Assembly: GCA_964468875.1 (NCBI GenBank) | Contig: CAYXWV010000011.1 | Location: 303-64,302 of the forward strand | Direction: 5' to 3' | DNA: 64,000 nt | From: an uncultured Anaerolinea sp. | Lineage (GTDB): Bacteria; Chloroflexota; Anaerolineae; Anaerolineales; Anaerolineaceae | Shown here: positions 35,780-53,597 of the stretch, piece by piece | Layout of the letters: each line of letters begins with the position of its first letter | Position numbering within the stretch: the stretch's first letter is position 1 | Position numbers and translations under genes: made by a program | The notes under the pieces: generated by a model | Databases searched by the model: none | Seen by the model: only the letters and a program-made list of their open reading frames with translations | Told to the model about the DNA's origin: nothing

Positions 35780-36499
35780 TTAATGATCACAAATAATTAC
35801 AATAGTATCCAATAATAAAGGCTTGCTTTTAATATTTTTCTCGACTTCTGGTCCTGTAATAATGCTTTTTGAAGTCTCATACAGACACATTTTCAAATCA
35901 ATCATCTTTAATCCAGCTTGAAAAGCTACCTTCAATAAAGTAAAAGGAGTGAACCAATACTTGTGATCAGAATTCACCTCCTCCTTGCCATTATTATATG
36001 CATTTAAAAGAAATGGTAAGCCAAATGCGTTTGGAACTGTAATAACCAGTTTATCAAAACTATCACCGTAATTCTGAACAATCTTTTTTAGGAAATCTAC
36101 TGGATTTTCAACATGTTCAAGAATTTCACCTAACAGTAGAAAGTCATAATGATCTTCTTCAATTTCTTTTATACCTGGTAAAGTGATATCGCCATAAAAA
36201 ACATTTGTAATTCCCTTATGTTTTATATATTTCAGAGCTTCTTTATTAATATCTATTCCGATACATTTTGATGATACATATGTGAGAAGGCTATGCAAAT
36301 AATTACCGGCATTCATTTTCATTTGAATAATCTCAACATGATCTGTACACCCTAAGTGAATTATTTTTTTTTCTGAAACTAAATCTAGTAAATAATCTGG
36401 GCGAAGACTCAGGGATTGGTATGGTTCGAACTGCAAAGAAACCATTAATTCGCCTGAACCATCAATAGCTTTTTTTACGACTTCTAAATCTTTTATCAT
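35780..36499 (-). CDS. Class I SAM-dependent methyltransferase
   Basis: 239 aa. Motif I-like IIHLGCTD, then CIGIDINKEAL and FDFLLLGEILEHVENPVDFLKKI. Confidence 0.65.
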   Translation of the reverse strand: MIKDLEVVKKAIDGSGELMVSLQFEPYQSLSLRPDYLLDLVSEKKIIHLGCTDHVEIIQMKMNAGNYLHSLLTYVSSKCIGIDINKEALKYIKHKGITNVFYGDITLPGIKEIEEDHYDFLLLGEILEHVENPVDFLKKIVQNYGDSFDKLVITVPNAFGLPFLLNAYNNGKEEVNSDHKYWFTPFTLLKVAFQAGLKMIDLKMCLYETSKSIITGPEVEKNIKSKPLLLDTIVIICDH

Positions 36500-36515
36500 G
36501 TTATCATCCCGTCGC

Positions 36516-38123
36516 TTATTTACTTATCGAATAAAAAAAGTCTTCAATATTCTGAACAATATGTTCAAAACTAAACTTCTTTGCAGTTTGTAAACCATTC
36601 TCTGAAAGTAACTTCCTTGCGGATTCATTCTGCATTAAAAACAAAATTGATTCAGCAAAGGTATTAACATCCCCTTGATCAATTATGAGACAGTTTTCAC
36701 CTGTTTTACCATATGTATTTATTCCTCCGCAATCTGTTGAGATTACTGGCGTGCCAGATGCCATTGCTTCAATGGGTGGCATAGGAAATGATTCATATAC
36801 AGATGTGAAAATGAAAATATCCGAAGTTCTGTATAATTTTGCTAGTTCCGCTTGTGAAACCATCTCAAAGAATTCAACAGGAAAACCCAAACCAGAAATA
36901 GAAGGTTTTACTTGACCTGCCCACTTCACCGTAAATCTTCCGCCCAAAGCCCACACTTTATTGAGAACATCAAACGCAAAAGGAAAATTTTTAAAACCCA
37001 ACTCGGGATTGCCAACAAGTAGTATTGTATTGGTAAACTTTTTTTCAATTTCCGGCTTGTAAAAATTTAAATCAATTCCGTTATACAAGATTGTTGATTC
37101 AATATTGTATCTTGCTTGAAGAATATCAGAAACAATATCAGCTACAGCTAGATAATGGGCATTAGTGTGATATAGGTCATTGTATTTCTTTCGAATTTCA
37201 TTACTACTAGAAATTAACGCTCCATAATCACCATATAATAATTCATATCCTTGCTCCCAATAAACAAGAGGAATCTTCGATTTTAGATAACTAGGGATGA
37301 GGCTAATAAAACCGCAAAGTAAGACATCCACCTTTTGGTTTAATCGATAAACATCCTCAAGTGAAGTAACAATAATTTGTCCATTAATATCATGATCTAA
37401 ATTAATATCACTCCAACCAGGTATTGCATTATCACCTTTTTTACCTTGATAAATTGCATAAACTTCATGCCCTCTCTTGTGTAATTGTCTCATCTGTTCT
37501 AAGAGACATTTAAGTCCTCCAGTAAGCTTGTGGTGTGGCAAAATATACCCAATTCTTAGTTTCTCTTTCTTTTCTGAATATGGTTTTACAAATTTTTTCT
37601 TGTTCTCAAGACTAATTAACTGAGGGAAAAAACTATAGAATTGAATTTGGCCATAAATAGTCTTTTCAACAGAAAAATTGAAATCAAAATCTTTGAATAA
37701 AGTCGGATGATATACACGTGTCAGGTGCTTTTCTGAATCAGCTTGGTTGATGGTTAACAATGGAGTAATAATAAGAAGTGATTTAAGCACGTGTCTTAGA
37801 AGCACCTCAATTAATTCAATGGTTGCATCTTGAGCCAGATATTCAATAACATCTGTTACTAGAATGCAGTCATAGTTCTGTAATGTTTCGTCATCAATTA
37901 AGGCATTTTTCGAGTATATTTTTTGACCTTCGTAATCGATATCTTCGTGACCATCCATCGGGAGTTTATCAATAGAGATAGTCTTTTTGTTTTCTTTTAG
38001 AATGTCTTGGAGAAACTTTACAAATTTACTTGTCGATTGACCAATGACTAAAACTGAATTTGGTCTTTCTGAAAGAATAAACTTTTTAATAGTTGGAACA
38101 ATTTCATAAAAACTTATATACAT
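36516..38123 (-). CDS. Methyltransferase-like N-domain fused to a GT4-family glycosyltransferase
   Basis: 535 aa. The N-terminus has VLVIGQS...CILVTDVIEYLAQD. The C-terminus has FIFTSVYESFPMPPIEAMASGTPVISTDCGGI (GT-B / GT4 EX7E region). Confidence 0.75.
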   Translation of the reverse strand: MYISFYEIVPTIKKFILSERPNSVLVIGQSTSKFVKFLQDILKENKKTISIDKLPMDGHEDIDYEGQKIYSKNALIDDETLQNYDCILVTDVIEYLAQDATIELIEVLLRHVLKSLLIITPLLTINQADSEKHLTRVYHPTLFKDFDFNFSVEKTIYGQIQFYSFFPQLISLENKKKFVKPYSEKKEKLRIGYILPHHKLTGGLKCLLEQMRQLHKRGHEVYAIYQGKKGDNAIPGWSDINLDHDINGQIIVTSLEDVYRLNQKVDVLLCGFISLIPSYLKSKIPLVYWEQGYELLYGDYGALISSSNEIRKKYNDLYHTNAHYLAVADIVSDILQARYNIESTILYNGIDLNFYKPEIEKKFTNTILLVGNPELGFKNFPFAFDVLNKVWALGGRFTVKWAGQVKPSISGLGFPVEFFEMVSQAELAKLYRTSDIFIFTSVYESFPMPPIEAMASGTPVISTDCGGINTYGKTGENCLIIDQGDVNTFAESILFLMQNESARKLLSENGLQTAKKFSFEHIVQNIEDFFYSISK

Positions 38124-38194
38124 AAAAAATCCCTCTTTCTGTACTTTCTTTGTAATTGAGATTATTGAATGTGCTGATTAGATCTCTAATAAGC

Positions 38195-40171
38195 TCAATC
38201 TTTAATGTTGGAATAAATGAGGTTAAATACTTCTTCATCTTCTGGTTGAAATTTCAAATAGGTGGCAAGAGCAAAAAGGCCTTCTTTTTGTTGACCTCTT
38301 TCTATCCATCCTTTTCCGATTTTTTTTAATGCTTCAACAGGAGTAAGATTCATTAATTTAGCGATATTTTCAACATTACTTTGATATATTGAATTTTGAG
38401 GTTCTGTGATGAAGGCTTTTATAATTTTTTCAAGCGCTTCATCATTATTCTTTTCTGCAACTGCAATTATTGATTCAATATTATATGCTTCCGCAGAGTC
38501 TGAATTTATCATTTTTGCTTCATTAACTAAAAACCGAGCGAATTTAGTCTTCCCCAATTCTATTTGACAAACAGCAAGGTCATAATAATCCTGAAGACAG
38601 ATTTTGCTGACCGCTACTGAACTGATTATTGTCTCATATGAAGATTGCCACATCTTCTTATTTTTATATTTTTTTGCTAACTCTCTTAATGAGTCGCCTG
38701 ATTCAGATCTTCTTAATAATTCTTCTCCGATTGTATCCTCAGAATTTTTAGTATTTGTTTGCTTTTCTTTTACTCCAAGTTTTTTTTCTTGCAACCATTT
38801 ATATCTTGCTTTTTTTGCTTGAGAGTATTCTTTTTGAACAGCATAAACTTCCATCAGGTGAAAAAGACTATTTTCCTTAGAATAATTATTAGGCGGTAAT
38901 ACGTCGAAGAATATTTTGCTCTCATCATTTCGATTTGATACCCAATTAAAAAGTCTTTCTGCCTTCTGAAAATCAGCAAACTCATATAAATAAAATTCGG
39001 CTACAAATTGCATCATGCTAGAAATGCCATAAAAATCAATTTGTGAATCTATCAAAACTTTCTTAAGCTTTAAAAGATCGTCCTTTTCTTTGTAATAGTT
39101 CAATAGATAATAATAGGCTAATCCAAGATATCGCATACCTAACGCATCATCTGGAAGTGTATTTAATGTTTCCTCAAACTCACTAATTGCACCTTTAATA
39201 TTATTAAAATGTAATAAGGAAACACCCTTAATCAATTTAACATAATAATCATTTTGATGAAGAGCAAGATAATCATCACAAATCTTAATATTTCGTGTTA
39301 CTTTCGAATCCCATTCATTTTTATCAAGATTATCGTATCCAGTATGTTTGAATTGGATATTCGTGATACATTGTGTAATTCCTAGTTTATTTGCACTAGG
39401 CGTTAGTGTTTCATGAATTGGAAAGTCATATTTTAATCCGAGGTGATTCTTGATTAATCTCTGATTATCAGCAACATGATGACCATCATCACTACTAACA
39501 GTCGGACACACATAAATATCAGCTAAACCGCAAGTTACAGCATGCAATAACTTCGGTTTTTCATCATCCTCTATATATTCATCCGCATCTGTCCTTAAAA
39601 TCCAATCACAAGTCGCATATTTTAGACTCTCGTTTCGCGCTTCAGAAAAATCATTTGTCCATGCAAAATACACAACCCTTGCTCCGAAAGACTTCGCGAT
39701 TTCAACTGTTTTATCGGTAGATCCGGTATCTACAACAATTATTTCTTGAACAATGTCTTTATAAGAATTAAGGCACTTTTGTAAGTTGGCTTCTTCATTT
39801 TTTACTATCAGTACGAGAGAAATTGAAGGTACTTTATCAGGTTTAGTTTTATGGTGGAAATTTGCATTTATCGTTTTTCCATTAATTTTAATATTCTCTT
39901 TAACCAATTCTTTAAATGCAACGGTATTTGACGGATCGAGTAGAAGCTCATTATACAAATATAATCTTGCCAACCTGTTTTGGTTCATGTTTGTATAACA
40001 TAATCCAATTAGTAATTGAAGGTTTTTTACAGATGTACCCCTATTGTGTATTTCAATAAAAATGTCGTTCGCTTTAGAAAAATCACCACTGTTAAAATAA
40101 TTTAATCCTGTCTTCAATAATTTCTGTTCACTTGAGTCTAATCCTTTGTAATCCACCAAAAGCTTTCCCAT
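38195..40171 (-). CDS. TPR-flanked GT2-family glycosyltransferase
   Basis: 658 aa. GT-A core ISLVLIVKNEEANLQKCL...IIVVDTGSTDKTVEIA...NDFSEARNESLKYATCDWILRTDADE. TPR-like repeats sit on both sides of the core. Confidence 0.8.
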   Translation of the reverse strand: MGKLLVDYKGLDSSEQKLLKTGLNYFNSGDFSKANDIFIEIHNRGTSVKNLQLLIGLCYTNMNQNRLARLYLYNELLLDPSNTVAFKELVKENIKINGKTINANFHHKTKPDKVPSISLVLIVKNEEANLQKCLNSYKDIVQEIIVVDTGSTDKTVEIAKSFGARVVYFAWTNDFSEARNESLKYATCDWILRTDADEYIEDDEKPKLLHAVTCGLADIYVCPTVSSDDGHHVADNQRLIKNHLGLKYDFPIHETLTPSANKLGITQCITNIQFKHTGYDNLDKNEWDSKVTRNIKICDDYLALHQNDYYVKLIKGVSLLHFNNIKGAISEFEETLNTLPDDALGMRYLGLAYYYLLNYYKEKDDLLKLKKVLIDSQIDFYGISSMMQFVAEFYLYEFADFQKAERLFNWVSNRNDESKIFFDVLPPNNYSKENSLFHLMEVYAVQKEYSQAKKARYKWLQEKKLGVKEKQTNTKNSEDTIGEELLRRSESGDSLRELAKKYKNKKMWQSSYETIISSVAVSKICLQDYYDLAVCQIELGKTKFARFLVNEAKMINSDSAEAYNIESIIAVAEKNNDEALEKIIKAFITEPQNSIYQSNVENIAKLMNLTPVEALKKIGKGWIERGQQKEGLFALATYLKFQPEDEEVFNLIYSNIKD

Positions 40172-43242: not shown

Positions 43243-44097
43243 TTATTCCGACTTGTTAATATCCTCAACCACCTTTTTGGCTTTTCCTTTGCCAAGTTCA
43301 ATGGATCTTTCATATGCCGCCCAAATCGCGCGTGAAATCGCTGTGCGGAAACCGGCTTTTTCGAGATAATATAAAGCTTCGGCTGTGGTACCGCCAGGAG
43401 AGGTCACGTCGTTCCGAAGCCGGGCTGGATGTTCATGGTTCTGGCGGTAAAATTCAGTGCTTCCGCGTAAGGTCTCAACGACCAGTTTTTCGGCGATCCG
43501 CCGCGGAAATCCCATATGGACGCCGGCTTCAATCATGGCTTCCATAAAGAGAAACACATAAGCCGGACCGGTGCCAGAAAGAGCGGTGGCCATATCAAGA
43601 TAGCCCTCATCATCCACGAACACTTCTTCGCCCAGAGATTGAATGATCTCGCAGGCCAATATCTTTTTCTCTTCACTAACCTGGTCAGTAGCAACCCACA
43701 CGGTAATTCCCATGCCAATTTGCGCCGGTGTGTTGGGCATGGCGCGGATAATTTGCTCAATATTTAGTTTTTCTTTTAAAGTAGCAAGCGAGACGCCCGC
43801 CATAATGGAAATCACCAGGGCATCCGTTTTTATGTTGCCTTTGATGGCTTTAGCTGCCAGGTTCAACCCTTGCGGCTTTACTGCCAGGATCACAATATCT
43901 GCCTGCCCAACCACATCGCTGCTATCCACATGACCGTTTATCCCAAAGGAATTTTTTAACTCGTCAAGACGGTCAGGGGTGGGTTCAACTACAATCAGGT
44001 TTTTTGCATTCACCTTGCCGGTGCCAATCAAACTGGACACAATCGCCTTGCCCATGACACCAAAACCAATCACCGCGATCTTTAATTGATCCAACAT
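43243..44097 (-). CDS. proC: Pyrroline-5-carboxylate reductase
   Basis: Start taken at the ATG at 44097 with RBS GGAGAG. IAVIGFGVMGKAI, MPNTPAQIG and VTSPGGTTAEAL motifs are present. Confidence 0.9.
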   Translation of the reverse strand: MLDQLKIAVIGFGVMGKAIVSSLIGTGKVNAKNLIVVEPTPDRLDELKNSFGINGHVDSSDVVGQADIVILAVKPQGLNLAAKAIKGNIKTDALVISIMAGVSLATLKEKLNIEQIIRAMPNTPAQIGMGITVWVATDQVSEEKKILACEIIQSLGEEVFVDDEGYLDMATALSGTGPAYVFLFMEAMIEAGVHMGFPRRIAEKLVVETLRGSTEFYRQNHEHPARLRNDVTSPGGTTAEALYYLEKAGFRTAISRAIWAAYERSIELGKGKAKKVVEDINKSE

Positions 44098-44148
44098 AAT
44101 TACTCTCCACACTCAATGATTGGATAATTATACAGACAGGATGGATTT

Positions 44149-44784
44149 TTAGACAACCATTCGCCGTAACTTCATGGGGTCAACGGCAACTGGTTCCGCC
44201 ATTTGCCGGGCTGGATAGGGGCTTAACATGGTTTGTAGCTCTGCAACCGGTTTGTCTTCGAGCCACTGCCAGCAGGTGGATGAATCGAAAATCACCGGCA
44301 TGCGGTTATGATAATCCGCCAGCAATTCATTCGGCTCTGTGGTAATGATGGTGCAGGAATACAATTCATTCCCCTGGTTGTCCTGCCAGTACTCCCACAA
44401 CCCGGCAAAAGTGAACATTTTCTCTTCAGCCAGTTGAAAGAGGTAGGGTTGTTTGCGGGACCCTTCCTGCCGCCATTCATAGAATCCGCTGGCAGGAATC
44501 AGGCAGCGCCGACGAATAAAGGCGTTACGGAAGGAGGGTTTCTCAATCAGAGTTTCAGCCCGGGCATTGATCAGTTTATTGCCAATCGAAATATCTTTCG
44601 CCCAACCGGGTACCAACCCCCAACGGAATATATCAACACTGCGCTTGAGCCCGTTGGTCACCACCGGCACCCCCTCGCCGGGAGAGATATTCTCATTAGG
44701 AGCCAGTTCTGACGGCACTTCTGCCAGCCCCAGCAAATCTTTCATTTCTTCCGGGTCGTACATGATTGAAAACCGGCCGCACAT
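44149..44784 (-). CDS. yedK: SOS response-associated peptidase (SRAP/YedK family, abasic-site sensor)
   Basis: Start taken at the ATG at 44784 so that the product begins MCGRFS (catalytic Cys2). INARAETL, GFYEW and HNRMPVI motifs are present. Confidence 0.88.
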   Translation of the reverse strand: MCGRFSIMYDPEEMKDLLGLAEVPSELAPNENISPGEGVPVVTNGLKRSVDIFRWGLVPGWAKDISIGNKLINARAETLIEKPSFRNAFIRRRCLIPASGFYEWRQEGSRKQPYLFQLAEEKMFTFAGLWEYWQDNQGNELYSCTIITTEPNELLADYHNRMPVIFDSSTCWQWLEDKPVAELQTMLSPYPARQMAEPVAVDPMKLRRMVV

Positions 44785-47008
44785 CGGGCACCTGCCTTTC
44801 AAATTTCAGTGGTAACTCAATTGTAGCGGAGTGAGCCCATTGTTTCAAATCATCCACTTCAATGCCAAATGGATATAAAATGCTGGATGCCGCGCGGGCA
44901 AGCAGCTCGACATATTTTTCCACATCCAACAATGCGGGGTCAATCCTCTCCGGCACTTCCCACGGGCGCACATCCGGGTCGCCGCGCGTGTAGACGAAAC
45001 GCATCTTCTGCCCCGGGCGAATTCGTCTGCCGGTCTGCTGCAGCAGTTGAAATGCCGCTCTCACCGCCGGGGTTGGAGACTTGTATCCTTCCAACTCATG
45101 GGTGATACGTGAGGTGACCACCAACTTCTCCACCGGCACCCTGCCCTCCCGCACCGCTTTGAGCTCATTTTTGAAAATCGAGAAAGCTTCCGCCACCCTG
45201 GCAGGGAGCATTCCCATGGTATAAGCCTCAGCCAGCGTATCCAACATGCGGGTCTGCGTGTCGCCCACCCAGGGAGGCGTGTCGCGGCGGCGAACCTCAA
45301 TGCCGCGCACTTTCAACGATCCATCCTGAAAAACGCCGAAATAGCGGTTGGCGACCGGCACCCGGCTGTCTGCCCTCGAAGGCAAAAAAGCCACCCAACG
45401 GTAAACCCCGTCCAGTGAGATGCCCAGCCCGGTGCGATCCTGAATTTTCTCAAGCACTTCCTGAAAATCCTGTTTGGTGGTGGCGCCCTCTTTCTTGAGC
45501 CAGAGCGCGTCCACAAACAGGTGCAGCACTTCAAACCCCAGTGATTCGGCGGTTTCTTTGCCACGTAAAAGCACCTCGCGTCCGCCCCGGGTAACCGCCT
45601 CATGCGCCTCGATGCGTCCAAAGCGGGCATTTTTGTAGCCCAGGAAGCCAAAACATACCACCAGCAGCCATTTCAACGCCGAGGCACGCGCCTTGTCACG
45701 CTTGACAATCGGGTCATCCTTTGCCAGGTTTGCCTGATTCATCTTGAGTGCCACGCGCTTGTCGTAGAGGGGTTTCAAGGTTAGCGGCACCACCCCCAGT
45801 TCCTCACTTGCAGGGGTGATGCCGTCAGGCAGGGGCACCTCTGGAGAGATGTTGCCTTTGATGATGACCGCCGGGTACATGGAGATAAAATCCACCTGCC
45901 CCACGTTGGCATGCACCCCTACTATGGGCTGGTAGATCAACCCGCCGCGGTCGCGCTGAATGAGGTCCACGCCGTTTTTGAAAGCCTCCACCTGCTGCTT
46001 GTGCCACGGCACCAGAATCTGATGTTCCAGCGCGGTCAGCATCTGCATGGCGGAGATGCCCGACCCCGGAGAGACCCGCGCAGCACGTTCAATGGATTGG
46101 GCGGTGACACGAGCCGATTCAAGCACCCCATCCAGACCGTAATCCTTCCACATCATGGCGTTGCGCTGGTCAATATGACAGCGCCCAAACAGGTGCGCCT
46201 CCTCTGCACGATAAATGATCTGCCCGTAAGAGAAGTAGGTCAGTTCTTTTTGCCAGTGCACATCGCGCGAACGGTCGCGGTTTAGATGCAACTCCATGCC
46301 GGCTTCACCAGCCAGCCGCAAGAGGGTCGGGATGACCCAGTTGTCGCCCCACTGGGTAAGGATGAAATCGGGGTCAATCTGATCAAGCATTTCATTTAAA
46401 TGAGAGATCAGTTCGGCCGGGTGGTCAAGGCAAAGCGAGCGCTGGCGCTGCTGATATTTCACGCGCACGGTTTTGGGCGTGCCGCGGGTGGGATCGCAAT
46501 CCGGCTCGATCTGTAATTTGCGAAAAACCGGCAGCAGAGGCGCCAGATCCCAGCGGGTATTGAGCACACGCAGCGATTGAATGATGGAACGCTCATCCGT
46601 CTCGATATCGCAAAACGCCATCGGAAAGGTGCCGAATTGAGCCGAATGGCGGGTAGTCACCGCAATGTCAGAATCATAGTAGGTTAAATGCGGAAACTGG
46701 CGCTGCACCTCACGAAACAGGCGGGTCTGTCGCACCGGGTTGTCAATGACCGCCTGAAGCACCGGGATGGGCTCCGCGAGGAACACATCGCGGCGCATTT
46801 CGCGGCTGAGTGAAATGATTCCCTGTTGACGGCGCAGCATTTTCCACAAGGCGCGAAGCTGTTCAGGTTCGCCCGCCGCATAAAAGGTGACCGGCATGGG
46901 CTGGCGCAGGCAGAGTCGTTCGCCCTCTTCGGTTATGAACCACATACGCACGCCGTCTTCGGCGTCTTCGTAGAGATCAAGCATCCAGCCGCGGATTATC
47001 GCGCACAC
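44696..47008 (-). CDS. Family B DNA polymerase (Pol-epsilon-like motifs)
   Basis: Exo I FCDIETDE, motif A VDFISMYPAV, motif B KWLLVVCFGFLGYKNARFG, motif C LHLFVDALW. The GTG at 47008 abuts the upstream stop. The ATG at 46984 gives the MLDLYEDAEDG N-terminus typical of PolB. Confidence 0.85.
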   Translation of the reverse strand: MCAIIRGWMLDLYEDAEDGVRMWFITEEGERLCLRQPMPVTFYAAGEPEQLRALWKMLRRQQGIISLSREMRRDVFLAEPIPVLQAVIDNPVRQTRLFREVQRQFPHLTYYDSDIAVTTRHSAQFGTFPMAFCDIETDERSIIQSLRVLNTRWDLAPLLPVFRKLQIEPDCDPTRGTPKTVRVKYQQRQRSLCLDHPAELISHLNEMLDQIDPDFILTQWGDNWVIPTLLRLAGEAGMELHLNRDRSRDVHWQKELTYFSYGQIIYRAEEAHLFGRCHIDQRNAMMWKDYGLDGVLESARVTAQSIERAARVSPGSGISAMQMLTALEHQILVPWHKQQVEAFKNGVDLIQRDRGGLIYQPIVGVHANVGQVDFISMYPAVIIKGNISPEVPLPDGITPASEELGVVPLTLKPLYDKRVALKMNQANLAKDDPIVKRDKARASALKWLLVVCFGFLGYKNARFGRIEAHEAVTRGGREVLLRGKETAESLGFEVLHLFVDALWLKKEGATTKQDFQEVLEKIQDRTGLGISLDGVYRWVAFLPSRADSRVPVANRYFGVFQDGSLKVRGIEVRRRDTPPWVGDTQTRMLDTLAEAYTMGMLPARVAEAFSIFKNELKAVREGRVPVEKLVVTSRITHELEGYKSPTPAVRAAFQLLQQTGRRIRPGQKMRFVYTRGDPDVRPWEVPERIDPALLDVEKYVELLARAASSILYPFGIEVDDLKQWAHSATIELPLKFERQVPDVRPVFNHVRPGRNERFAGAGRSAVRTGS

Positions 47009-47419
47009 TTACGCACCTTCCTGCAAATCCACGTACACGGCCGGGCCGTTCTCGTCTGAAGGCAGATCAGGCGCGGCGGCTTCCTCCTCCGCTGCGGGTT
47101 CATCCTGAGTAACCAGTTCAAGCAGCGAGGTGATGCCGCGCACGGCGGGTCCATCCTGCACGGGCAGCACGCCGTTCTCTTCCAGTTTCAACTCCAGCGC
47201 CTTGACCTTCTTGTAAAGCTCAAGCAGCATTGAAACCAGGTAAATATCCATCGGGTAGAGATTGCTGGCATAAGAAGCTTCAGCCACATGAGAATGCGAA
47301 AGGGCGATCAGTTCTTCAATTAACACCTTGTCGCTCTTGCGCAGGGCGCGCGTGAAGCGGCTGAGCGCCTGCTCTTCTTCAACCCAGGTCTGCGTCGCAG
47401 ATTGAATTGTTCTACCCAT
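47009..47419 (-). CDS. Hypothetical 136-aa protein of the polymerase cassette
   Basis: Helical N-terminal part and an acidic, Ala/Pro-rich tail (DEPAAEEEAAAPDLPSDENG). Its start overlaps the upstream stop by 1 nt (TAATG). No family recognised. Confidence 0.5.
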   Translation of the reverse strand: MGRTIQSATQTWVEEEQALSRFTRALRKSDKVLIEELIALSHSHVAEASYASNLYPMDIYLVSMLLELYKKVKALELKLEENGVLPVQDGPAVRGITSLLELVTQDEPAAEEEAAAPDLPSDENGPAVYVDLQEGA

Positions 47420-48015
47420 TAACTCCTCCCGGTTTCTGCCAGACCGGCACCAGTAAATAAAGAAGGCTGAACCGCGTTTTCAGCGGGCGGCAGCAGCGAT
47501 GTTTCCTCCCAAATCTGGGTGGCCTGACGTTTCAACTGCGCCAGCAAAACCAGACGAGGGCTTGAAATGGAAAGCAAAGGTTTGGCACTGGCCACCACGG
47601 GCGCCACCCGGCTGGCGCTCTTGATGCAGCGCAGGGTCTTCTCAAAGATCATCAGACTCTCATCAAGCTGCACGCTTTCATCCATGAAGGTGCTCAACAG
47701 ATCAAGGATCAGCACCGGAACCCCCGCCTCGGGTACAAGCTTCTCAAGCAAGGAATGGACCTGATAACAGGTAAAGGCGCGTGAAAGGCGGATGTTCTTG
47801 AGCATGCCAGCCGGGTCCGCGGTCAAACCGCGCAGCGACTTGGCCACGTAATACATGTTGCTGCGATTGCCGCAGTCGAGGATGTAAAGAGGACCACGCA
47901 AGGCAAGACGGGCAGACAGGTCGAGCATGCGGGCGCCGCCGGCATGCGGGCCAAACACCACAAAGAGTTCATTGGGCAGCGGCAACACCAGTTCAGAAGT
48001 CAGGTTTTGTTCCAT
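47419..48015 (-). CDS. RecA-fold protein with degenerate Walker A (ImuA/SulA-like by analogy)
   Basis: LFVVFGPHAGGARMLDLSARLA aligns by eye with RecA [21 protein letters not shown], with the Lys-Thr pair replaced by Ala-Arg. VPVLILDLLSTF resembles Walker B. Confidence 0.5.
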   Translation of the reverse strand: MEQNLTSELVLPLPNELFVVFGPHAGGARMLDLSARLALRGPLYILDCGNRSNMYYVAKSLRGLTADPAGMLKNIRLSRAFTCYQVHSLLEKLVPEAGVPVLILDLLSTFMDESVQLDESLMIFEKTLRCIKSASRVAPVVASAKPLLSISSPRLVLLAQLKRQATQIWEETSLLPPAENAVQPSLFTGAGLAETGRS

Positions 48016-48021
48016 ATCTTA

Positions 48022-48049
48022 ATTATATAGAACATTTGTTCTTTGTCAA
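48022..48049 (-). promoter_or_regulatory. Consensus promoter with a LexA (Cheo-type) box in the spacer; leaderless geometry
   Basis: On the minus strand: TTGACA (48049-48044), a 16-nt spacer containing AGAACAAATGTTCT (48042-48029), then TATAAT (48027-48022), then 6 nt (TAAGAT), then the ATG at 48015. Confidence 0.6.
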
Positions 48050-48200
48050 GCGGTGTCAGAGCGGAGTGATTCGTATCCTTTTTGAGTTGGGAACGAAGAA
48101 AACGAATAATCAAGTTCAAAATATCGGCTTTTTTCTTTGGTTTTGATTCGTTTTGATTTTTATCCCCATCCTCCACAATTTAATCGAGAACTCTGGCGCC

Positions 48201-48229
48201 TTTATAGTTCTTTTGTTCTATTTTGTCAA
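48201..48229 (-). promoter_or_regulatory. Second, degenerate copy of the promoter/box module
   Basis: On the minus strand: TTGACA (48229-48224), a 17-nt spacer containing AGAACAAAAGAACT (half-palindrome only), then TATAAA (48206-48201). Confidence 0.3.
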
Positions 48230-48252
48230 GGGTGATTTATCCTTGATTTCGA

Positions 48253-51989: not shown

Positions 51990-53597
51990 ATGAATATTAT
52001 TTTTTTTCACAAGATAATTACTAAAACAAAGAGTTGGCTCCCGTTTCTTCTACTATTTATTTTTGGGGTCGCATTCTCTTTATTCTTTATTTTTTCCGGA
52101 AAAACAATTGACGAGGGTGACAACTTTTCTGTCGGTTGGTTGTTGTCTGAGGGAAAAATCTTATATAAAGACATTTTCAGCCACCATTTTCCTTTTCCAT
52201 ATTTTTATGTTTCAACTTTTTTCTCACTTTTCACTCCATCCGTTTTTGTCGCAAGATTATCACTGCTTCTATTTGAATTGCTTTCCTTTTTATTACTCTT
52301 CTTTTTAACTAAAAAGTATGTTCAGGTCAGTGTTACTTATTTAATTTGGTGTATTATCGCAAGATTTTTCTTGGGAAACCTTGTTTTGTATTATTCTTTT
52401 TCTGGTATTTCAGTTTTTGTAATTTTTGTTTTGACGATATATTTAGTGAATGGAGATCACCACACTCGAAGGGATAGATTTACTTTTGTTTATGTTGTAG
52501 TTTATTCATTCTATAGTGTAATTTCAATCCTCAGCGATCCCACATCTATATTACCTTTATCAATTTCTTTATTAGGATTACTCTATTTTACAAAGAATAA
52601 TCGGAAAATGGCTTATTTAATAATTACAATCCTTTTGTTTATAATTCCCTTTATTATTTACCTCTTTTCGTATAATGCTATTTCAAATTTTGTAAATAGT
52701 GCTTTAATTTTTAACTATGGGTACTACCTAAACTACAACTCAGGATCTGTAAAAATACTCTCGACTATTCTCACCTTCCTGAAAAATTTCAATCCCTTTA
52801 GTCGTTTATTTTGGTTAGACCCTGGAGGATTACCAAGAAATATTCGAGACGCGGAATATCTTGTTCAATGGTTTTTTGGAGGATTCTATTACCGAATAAT
52901 ATTAATCGTTTTCTCAATAGTGATTGGCAACAAAAGGAATTGGAAATTCACTATTCTGATATTACTGTTCTTCGTTTCCCTTTTTTTTAGAAGTGAGGTT
53001 TTTTTTCATCCTATTGGAATGATATTGATATCAATCTATTGTTCGATTCATTTAATTCCACTTTTATTTAGACATATTTTTAGAACCAAACTATCTCTCA
53101 CCTTTGGTATTATTGTTAAATTTGGTATTTCTAACCTTTGTCTAATTATGATTGTTTTCTATTTTTCTTCAATGACTTTTTTTTCAATTCGTGATTATTT
53201 TTATTCTCCTGATCAAATTCAATATTCCACATACTTTGGACATTATATGGATAAAGCAGTAAGAATTTCCGAACTAACATGTGATAAGGTAGATGTAAAA
53301 ATTGCTTTTTATCCAAGTGATCCTTATATATACTTTTTTTCAAAAAAAGAGCCACTTGAAGGTTTTCTTTTCATGTATCCTTGGATAGTGGAAGTCGCCA
53401 AAGAAAGAATTCTGACATCCATAAGTATTGAAAAACCAACAAATACGTTGATTTTGATTGACAAAGATGGGAGTTTTTGGGGAGCCAAAAATTCAGATTA
53501 CTTATCAGATTACATTAATTATTTAAATACTTATTATTATCAAACTGAAGATGGTTTTTATGTTTCTCCAAATCTACACTCCCTCTGTCCATTTTAG
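51990..53597 (+). CDS. Polytopic membrane protein, possibly a GT-C-fold (ArnT/PMT-like) glycosyltransferase
   Basis: 535 aa with more than 10 hydrophobic segments. A DEGD sequence sits in the first loop (KTIDEGDNFSVGW). The C-terminal domain is soluble. GC content is very low. Confidence 0.4.
   Translation: MNIIFFHKIITKTKSWLPFLLLFIFGVAFSLFFIFSGKTIDEGDNFSVGWLLSEGKILYKDIFSHHFPFPYFYVSTFFSLFTPSVFVARLSLLLFELLSFLLLFFLTKKYVQVSVTYLIWCIIARFFLGNLVLYYSFSGISVFVIFVLTIYLVNGDHHTRRDRFTFVYVVVYSFYSVISILSDPTSILPLSISLLGLLYFTKNNRKMAYLIITILLFIIPFIIYLFSYNAISNFVNSALIFNYGYYLNYNSGSVKILSTILTFLKNFNPFSRLFWLDPGGLPRNIRDAEYLVQWFFGGFYYRIILIVFSIVIGNKRNWKFTILILLFFVSLFFRSEVFFHPIGMILISIYCSIHLIPLLFRHIFRTKLSLTFGIIVKFGISNLCLIMIVFYFSSMTFFSIRDYFYSPDQIQYSTYFGHYMDKAVRISELTCDKVDVKIAFYPSDPYIYFFSKKEPLEGFLFMYPWIVEVAKERILTSISIEKPTNTLILIDKDGSFWGAKNSDYLSDYINYLNTYYYQTEDGFYVSPNLHSLCPF

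Follow-up and report, generated by a model that had tools for sequence, protein, structure and literature searches.

The 64,000-nucleotide (nt) window analysed here, a stretch of contig CAYXWV010000011.1 from an uncultured Anaerolinea sp. whose first letter is position 1, contains four coupled genes on the minus strand between positions 44149 and 48049. Called as open reading frames (ORFs), they encode, in the order of transcription, the proteins iRadA, PPB2, PolB2 and SRAP. We document the identity of the four proteins, their gene order, a conserved promoter-operator in front of them, and a start codon placed immediately past the -10 hexamer. The family names of the first two proteins come from the literature and from precomputed annotation. 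The features that carry the argument are these:

47419-48015, minus strand: iRadA, 198 amino acids (aa), ATG start
47009-47419, minus strand: PPB2 (arCOG07300 / DUF8156), 136 aa
44696-47008, minus strand: PolB2, a family B DNA polymerase of bacterial group G2, 770 aa, GTG start
44149-44784, minus strand: SRAP, YedK-type, 211 aa from the ATG at 44784 (MCGRF)
48022-48049, minus strand: sigma-70-type promoter, with TTGACA at 48049-48044, a 16-nt spacer and TATAAT at 48027-48022
48030-48041, no strand (palindrome): GAACAAATGTTC (GAAC-N4-GTTC), the putative LexA operator, inside the promoter spacer
47455-47469, minus strand: QPSLF, a beta-clamp-binding-type motif in the iRadA C-terminal tail
45509-45517, minus strand: PolB2 motif C, FVD in place of DTD

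The genes are tightly joined. iRadA and PPB2 meet in the sequence TAATG, with base 47419 common to both, and the GTG of polB2 follows immediately after the TAA of PPB2 and is preceded by GGAAGG. SRAP begins inside polB2, so that the two genes overlap by 89 nt (44696-44784) in different frames; the longest SRAP ORF opens at a TTG at 44802, and the conserved start is the ATG at 44784. The promoter matches the consensus at 12/12 positions and is the sole such site in the region. A preliminary description of this DNA, made from the sequence alone, had reported four co-directional minus-strand genes with coupled junctions, a near-consensus promoter with GAAC-N4-GTTC in its spacer, a family B polymerase as third gene and a canonical SRAP as fourth. 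The ORF coordinates, the hexamer match, the position of the box and the domain searches described below all agree with it.

Sequence searches say little about the first gene: Pfam and NCBIfam return no match, and in a profile search against PDB sequences RadA comes top at a weak E = 0.16, so structure prediction was needed for its identity. An AlphaFold model built from an alignment of 36 homologues has a predicted local distance difference test (pLDDT) score of 83, with the core beginning at residue 17, and comprises the ATPase core only, lacking the N-terminal helical domain of RadA. When the model is compared with the PDB by Foldseek, the 50 best matches are all RadA, Rad51, DMC1 or Rad51 paralogues (50/50; E ~1e-7 to 1e-6, template modelling score 0.50-0.64). 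The preliminary description had noted a Walker A motif without its Lys-Thr pair, and the alignment bears this out: the motif reads GPHAGGAR, and the Lys and Thr positions vary across the 36 homologues. The RecA core proposed at the same time stands insofar as the protein is a RecA-superfamily pseudo-ATPase, but the nearest structures are archaeal RadA and eukaryotic Rad51, not bacterial RecA or ImuA. As modelled, iRadA is a catalytically inactive RadA/Rad51-core protein. Its C-terminal tail is predicted to be disordered (pLDDT <50) and contains the QPSLF motif, whose Q183 is invariant in the homologue alignment. A sequence of the form Q[LP]x[LF][FL] occurs at the iRadA C-terminus in nearly all of the 80 related loci described below.

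The second gene, thought at first to have no recognisable family, is PPB2, also known as arCOG07300 or Pfam DUF8156. Searches of NCBIfam and of our local copy of Pfam gave no match, and the assignment comes from a precomputed match to PF26485 (DUF8156) held by the identical protein and by all homologues listed (at least 120). The protein begins MGRTIQSATQ. Its MGRT arm (47408-47419, minus strand) is invariant in the homologue alignment and is kept in 78/80 loci. The structural model has helices at residues 5-25, 28-50 and 54-81, followed by a disordered tail. Within this tail (residues ~84-136; 47009-47170), the homologue alignment and 79 PPB2 proteins from the related loci show two conserved short motifs. 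One lies at residues ~97-103 and takes the form [ST]LL[ED]LV, LPSLVxLV or FLxLLN, and the other is C-terminal, YxD[FL][QE][ED][GA][AP]. These may be docking sites for a partner.

The third gene matches Pfam DNA_pol_B (1.5e-21), and its best NCBIfam models are of the archaeal type (PRK05761). Against PDB sequences it matches archaeal PolB at 4.6e-37 and Escherichia coli Pol II at 3e-4, search scores that point to a place among archaeal PolB rather than with Pol II. The alignment to Pyrococcus abyssi PolB sets FVD against the DTD of motif C; the first catalytic Asp is thus missing here, as it is in 65/65 aligned relatives. The exonuclease site has decayed as well. At ExoII, all variants listed (the 12 commonest patterns among 65 relatives) have W[LV] in place of FD, ExoI is variable across relatives, the stretch of P. 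abyssi PolB that bears ExoIII is unaligned, and the Pfam exonuclease domain scores only E = 0.16. By these motifs the protein is a PolB2 with a decayed exonuclease site, predicted to be dead for proofreading. Two local resemblances were considered and set aside. A DIE tripeptide at the ExoI position (residues 133-137; 46600-46620) could have signalled an active exonuclease, but it is unconserved in relatives and the ExoII Asp is lost, so that its retention is apparently due to chance. An 'NRD' loop was rejected as the D(K/R) motif specific to PolB2, since GRD occupies this position in canonical archaeal PolB, and the D(K/R) motif was not located in the window PolB2.

Does a polymerase with half of motif C missing still polymerise? 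Makarova and colleagues regarded the PolB2 group as inactivated (PMC4104785), and their proposal from 2014, in which PolB2 would be a catalytically dead scaffold that regulates replication or the restart of stalled forks, is favoured by the loss of the first Asp of motif C in all 65 relatives and by the decay of the exonuclease motifs. However, the relatives strictly keep motif A (DFxSMYP), the Lys of motif B and the second motif C Asp, and archaeal Dpo2, whose motif C likewise has a single Asp (IID), is an active translesion synthesis (TLS) extender required for damage-induced mutagenesis. We therefore regard the scaffold proposal as improbable.

A genome scan with iRadA found 310 loci, of which 80 were kept, all from Anaerolineae/Chloroflexota (L001-L080). 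The order iRadA-PPB2-PolB2 is preserved in all 80, wherever the contig permits it to be seen. One close relative is Chloroflexi bacterium HGW-Chloroflexi-4 (PHBW01, L005), in which iRadA is 76% and PolB2 79% identical to the proteins of the window. The expectation that the first two genes would co-occur with a PolB and an SRAP gene across genomes thus held for the first three genes, whereas SRAP is confined to one clade. lexA, DUF72 and GerE were looked for as recurrent neighbours in the 80 loci, but only syntenic housekeeping genes were found. Frames of iRadA, PPB2 or PolB2 are interrupted in several loci (among L038, L043, L014, L033, L057 and L067), reflecting either long-read assembly errors in metagenome-assembled genomes (MAGs) or decaying copies. 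A single MAG holds two operon copies (L038 and L043; MFD03899.bin.2.129).

The gene set has been described before, computationally, in 2014 and 2025, and the locus is orthologous to an operon type that is already in the catalogue; the preliminary description, which knew of no characterised system of this composition, was mistaken on this point (PMC4104785; PMC11791011). Its functional reading agrees in essence with the published one. Makarova, Krupovic & Koonin (2014) linked PolB2 to arCOG07300 and to a RadA that is inactivated, in several bacteria as well as in archaea, and noted lexA inside some bacterial PolB2 operons (PMC4104785). Kazlauskas et al. (2020) found bacterial G2 nested in archaeal B2, with ExoI unconserved, ExoIII missing and one motif C Asp. 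Timinskas, Timinskas & Venclovas (2025) named the partners iRadA and PPB2, gave iRadA-PPB2-PolB2 as the sole order in bacteria, and modelled a heteropentameric 'PolB2 mutasome', PolB2:iRadA:PPB2(3), with the MGRT arm inserted close to the active site; the published models include other Anaerolineae (PMC11791011). In the same article, beta-clamp motifs are mostly on iRadA and are frequent but non-obligatory, and lexA, SRAP and DUF72 are enriched neighbours of PolB2. The supplement lists HGW-Chloroflexi-4 as 'iRadA PPB2 PolB2 SRAP', operon type 1a, motif HLFVDALWL (PMC11791011). A 2026 survey still refers to G2 as a 'proposed' mutasome. Promoters and operators are not analysed in the published work, and sections 3.1-3.3 and the Discussion of the 2025 article mention neither the SRAP overlap nor a predicted leaderless start. 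What the present locus adds to published work is the module formed by a consensus promoter, a box in its spacer and an ATG 6 nt past the -10 hexamer.

Within the window alone, the palindrome occurs no more often than chance would have it (1 found versus 0.85 expected), and its significance derives from comparison across loci. It is the sole intergenic match in the window, even when one mismatch is allowed. Among 79 orthologous regions upstream of iRadA, the box is exact in 50 and has one mismatch in 27, and a module of the form cTTGACA-N2-3-GAACnnnnGTTC-TATATAAT is present in 77/79 of these Anaerolineae loci. Elsewhere in the same loci, the exact box was found only 4 times in 808 kb. Three of these are within atpD codons, and the fourth belongs to an identical promoter module before a GerE-type gene (L070). 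Nine close loci, the window among them, are nearly identical over the 38 nt leading up to the ATG, with the promoter itself invariant in 9/9. Only one base of the spacer and four of the six bases that precede the ATG vary, while the remaining intergenic region is unalignable, leaving a phylogenetic footprint over the promoter.

The ATG lies exactly 14 nt past the box, and thus 6 nt past the -10 hexamer, in 57/79 loci. This spacing leaves no room for a 5' untranslated region or a Shine-Dalgarno sequence, and a leaderless mRNA is predicted. The box itself is reportedly also the LexA box of Dehalococcoides, another member of the Chloroflexi (Fernandez de Henestrosa et al. 2002, J Bacteriol). In Gram-positive bacteria GAAC-N4-GTTC is an established LexA box (PMC3323433). 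From the footprint and the identity of the box we infer, with good support, that the operon is under LexA control.

The kinds of genes found behind the same module in other organisms bear on this reading. A metagenome scan for the whole promoter and box returned at least 120 stretches, and among the 120 matches listed the gene directly behind the module was as follows:

GerE-type protein: 29, many heading GerE-iRadA-PPB2-PolB2 operons
iRadA: 14
Y-family polymerase: 9
HTH_17 protein: 4
RecA-family protein, 256 aa: 3; in both contigs long enough to show it, the next gene is of the Y family
LexA: 2 (Peptidase_S24 1e-29; LexA_DNA_bind 5e-6 in one)
SSB-like protein: 1
DUF6504: 1

By annotation, this is SOS-regulon content, including a self-regulated lexA. 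One of the lexA contigs (L123) was considered as a control for Chloroflexi and rejected, as its LexA is Smithellaceae/Syntrophales-like; it supports the class of operator but not a Chloroflexi lineage.

Could the palindrome be the operator of a regulator other than LexA, for example a small GerE/LuxR-type protein? The GerE-family protein, the commonest gene product behind the module, is 135 aa long and often heads a GerE-iRadA-PPB2-PolB2 operon, as also in L070; GerE is the seventh commonest neighbour family in the supplementary table of the published catalogue (PMC11791011); and helix-turn-helix dimers of the GerE family bind palindromes. Against this, the box is kept in the window and the 80 genome loci although no GerE gene adjoins the operon there, its sequence is that of an experimentally established LexA box (PMC3323433), and lexA, Y-family polymerase and RecA-like genes, which are classic SOS regulon content, carry the same module. 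A GerE gene behind the box could as easily be a LexA target as a self-regulator. Taken together, we think a non-LexA operator unlikely.

The variant operon, in which a ~135-aa GerE/LuxR-type gene stands directly behind the module and is followed by iRadA-PPB2-PolB2, occurs in L070 (4660-5108) and in metagenome loci L081, L118, L122, L139, L158, L159 and L192. The 256-aa RecA-family gene followed by a Y-family polymerase gene, an arrangement that resembles imuA/imuB, is found behind an identical module in metagenome loci L176, L185 and L131, and stand-alone Y-family genes of ~392 aa occupy the same position in L084, L095, L119, L150 and others.

Further upstream, the intergenic region contains other repeated elements. 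A degenerate second copy of the promoter and box is formed by direct repeats (D1 and D3):

48203-48230, minus strand: TTGACA..GAACAAAAGAAC..TATAAA, ~180 nt upstream of the intact copy

A comparable distal promoter copy, with a box that is one mismatch off, occurs in L008. Between the two copies in the window, AAAACGAAT and ATTCGTTTT form an exact inverted pair (48099-48107 / 48146-48154), with counterparts noted in the upstream regions of L003, L004, L007 and L008. Across loci, the stretch from -330 to -80 of iRadA contains the octamer AAACGAAT/ATTCGTTT at a ~17-fold higher density (0.88 versus 0.05 per kb).

The fourth gene encodes a full-length SRAP domain (Pfam PF02586, 7.5e-69, 232 bits against a curated cut-off of 27.1), with PDB matches to 2f20 (3e-32), HMCES (2.8e-21) and YedK (3.7e-16). 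It carries the motifs MCGRF, in which Cys2 follows the initiator Met, and HNRMPVI. A start of the form M/V/L-CGR[FY] is found in 30/30 SRAP-bearing loci. Public gene calls place the SRAP start at Met14, giving a protein of 198 aa from which the catalytic Cys2 is deleted. A PolB2-SRAP fusion through a +1 frameshift was considered and found no support, and such a fusion would bury the catalytic N-terminal Cys. PolB2 has an extra Arg/Gly-rich tail, which may represent read-through that followed the attachment of SRAP.

To what extent is SRAP part of the system? It lies outside the conserved core and is attached in a single Anaerolineae clade. In all 30 closest-clade loci whose contig extends past polB, SRAP stands directly after polB on the same strand, and in 28 of these the overlap is 65-143 nt, with lengths that are all 2 mod 3, so that the frame relation is constant; L014 and L033, the remaining two, have a broken polB frame, which makes the overlap unmeasurable. 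No terminator-like site was found between polB and SRAP, and SRAP is independently enriched near mutagenic polymerases. All this speaks for a tie between the two. On the other hand, none of the ~40 more distant PolB2 loci of Anaerolineae has SRAP, which occurs in only 134 of ~1,800 neighbourhoods in the published supplement (PMC11791011) and has a GC content at third codon positions (GC3) of 0.60, which is between that of the cassette and that of the flanks. It also has a candidate promoter of its own:

44820-44848, minus strand: TTGAAA, 17-nt spacer, TACAAT, a 10/12 consensus match within polB2 codons, 36 nt upstream of the SRAP ATG

The closest ~20 loci preserve the hexamers of this site, which, however, fall inside conserved codons (LKQWAHSATIE) and so are weak evidence; SRAP may have its own promoter. 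That SRAP is a mere neighbour, a housekeeping protector of abasic sites that is expressed separately and has no functional tie to the mutasome, is in our view a realistic possibility, if not one that we favour. A more ambitious proposal, which we consider rather doubtful, is that SRAP is a working fourth component of the PolB2 mutasome. The two proteins would be made together, given that the SRAP start is inside polB2 on the same SOS transcript, and the SRAP-abasic cross-link or its peptide remnant would be the lesion that the PolB2 complex, tethered to the clamp, is specialised to extend past, or SRAP would gate the access of the mutasome to abasic sites. If true, this would be a bacterial counterpart of the interplay between HMCES and Pol zeta in eukaryotes.

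Downstream of SRAP, no terminator-like site was found at 44097-44156. The next gene, proC, probably starts at an ATG near 44096 (MLDQLK) and has a promoter-like sequence of its own, TTGTCT-18-TATAAT, that overlaps the SRAP stop.

No other part of the window is as rich in GC as the cassette. Its 2-kb bins have GC contents of 54.5-57.3%, compared with ~31-51% elsewhere, as had been noted before, although the earlier spot value of ~62% was a little high (the 500-nt maximum is 58.6%). A composition of ~57% against ~47% in the flanks, and a GC3 of 0.64-0.68 (44785-48015) against 0.46-0.56 in proC, the glpD-like gene, the M1 peptidase gene and dus, could suggest a recently acquired mobile island derived from a phage, plasmid or integrative and conjugative element. 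We consider this extremely improbable. The iRadA-PPB2-PolB2 genes are ~8 GC points above their flanks in 70/71 related loci, the flanking genes dus, M1 peptidase, proC and glpD-like are housekeeping genes that are syntenic in close relatives, and no integrase, transposase or bounding repeats were found at the cassette. Because synteny is conserved, the GC excess reflects a persistent difference in codon usage, not a fresh island. The window also has two low-GC patches (~30-33% GC). One, at 35780-40171, encodes a methyltransferase and GT4 and GT2 glycosyltransferases, and the other, at 51990-53597, holds a 535-aa ORF without a family that looks hydrophobic. A composite transposon made of two 535-aa ORFs flanking the cassette was rejected, since the two are unrelated: the first encodes a GT4 glycosyltransferase, and the second belongs to no family.

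The locus can be set beside several known systems. With the bacterial PolB2 (G2) mutasome operon it shares the core genes and their order, the MGRT arm, an iRadA that lacks Walker A and the N-terminal domain but has a clamp motif, the single-Asp motif C, the dead exonuclease and the SRAP neighbour. There is no difference in kind; here, lexA is not adjacent, and control is read from the promoter box. Dpo2 of Sulfolobus (Saccharolobus) islandicus belongs to the same orthologous group, likewise lacks proofreading, has a single motif C Asp (IID there, FVD here) and is encoded beside iRadA and PPB2. DNA damage induces it, and its role is that of a TLS extender (PMC8764526, summarised in PMC13324097). 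Unlike the polymerase of the window, Dpo2 is archaeal, is controlled by Orc1-2 rather than LexA and uses PCNA instead of the beta clamp; TLS extension was tested experimentally in Dpo2 and would apply here by analogy.

Parallels with SOS polymerases of other families are of a more general nature. E. coli Pol V (UmuD'2C-RecA-ATP) is LexA-controlled and clamp-bound, and its polymerase is joined by a RecA-family subunit and by a small subunit that reaches the active site with an N-terminal arm, a parallel drawn in PMC11791011. However, its catalytic subunit is of family Y, its RecA is an active, borrowed recombinase in place of the dedicated dead paralogue here, and its small subunit is a dimer of unrelated fold. 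E. coli Pol II (PolB, G1) is also a family B, SOS-regulated and clamp-using accessory polymerase, but it has a single subunit and active proofreading and is only remotely related in sequence. SRAP shares with YedK and HMCES the full-length domain, Cys2 in MCGRF and the HNRMP motif, and differs from them in being encoded last in a PolB2 operon and in starting within polB2.

The comparison with imuA-imuB-dnaE2, which was the basis for the preliminary interpretation, is apt for the logic of the cassette: a LexA-controlled, damage-type set with a RecA-superfamily pseudo-ATPase, a small adaptor and a specialised polymerase. It is an analogy only, as there is no Y- or C-family component. Neither IMS nor PolIII-alpha domains were found in the cassette (Pfam, NCBIfam), which is thus not a member of the ImuA-ImuB-DnaE2 group; iRadA is RadA/Rad51-like rather than ImuA-like, and the polymerase is of family B. 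The metagenome cassettes that combine a RecA-like gene with a Y-family polymerase, which can be compared to ImuA-ImuB-DnaE2, do share the promoter module.

We conclude that the locus is very probably a bacterial PolB2 mutasome operon, iRadA-PPB2-PolB2, to which SRAP was attached at the 3' end in one Anaerolineae clade, and that it would operate in the following way. In the undamaged cell, LexA bound to the palindrome would block RNA polymerase, and upon DNA damage RecA-stimulated self-cleavage of LexA would free the promoter, both steps being drawn from established SOS biology. A leaderless mRNA would then be made. Based on the published models of orthologues, PolB2, the catalytic subunit without proofreading, would assemble with one iRadA and a PPB2 trimer; the MGRT arm of PPB2 would insert near the PolB2 active site, and the QPSLF tail of iRadA would dock the complex on the beta clamp. 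By analogy to experiments with archaeal Dpo2, the complex would extend mismatched or lesion-distorted primer ends at a mutagenic cost. At the same stalled forks, the co-expressed SRAP would covalently shield abasic sites in single-stranded DNA, as suggested by the biochemistry of YedK and HMCES. LexA binding, damage induction and polymerase activity are all inferred.

Several points weigh against this interpretation. The pentameric bacterial mutasome is, according to a 2026 review, a prediction awaiting experimental verification. Confidence in the monomer model of PPB2 is moderate (pLDDT ~75-80 in the helices), and Foldseek found no significant match for this model; the published likeness of PPB2 to the N-terminal domain of a sigma factor was not reproduced by this search, in which the model was an isolated subunit of a predicted trimer. 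The leaderless transcript is predicted from spacing. Neither lexA nor recA occurs in the window or the flanks of the loci (a search for lexA with a Bacillus subtilis LexA sequence as the query had no match), and the lexA gene found behind the module in L123 is of non-Chloroflexota type. The absence of SRAP from the more distant loci, and the promoter that it may have, count on the same side.

The PolB2 mutasome is the sole predicted multi-subunit translesion polymerase of family B in prokaryotes, and its bacterial branch is known from computation. With the gene set already catalogued, the residual interest of the locus is in the conserved, probably leaderless LexA-box promoter and in the clade-specific, overlapping SRAP. 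Because the promoter arrangement recurs across Anaerolineae, cultured carriers such as Flexilinea flocculi (TC1, NZ_DF968181, L061) would allow a direct test of SOS control and of leaderless expression. If the attachment of SRAP is functional, it would connect an extender polymerase with the shielding of abasic sites in bacteria. Since Anaerolineae abound in anaerobic digesters and sediments, the operon is probably a main route of damage-induced mutagenesis in these environments.

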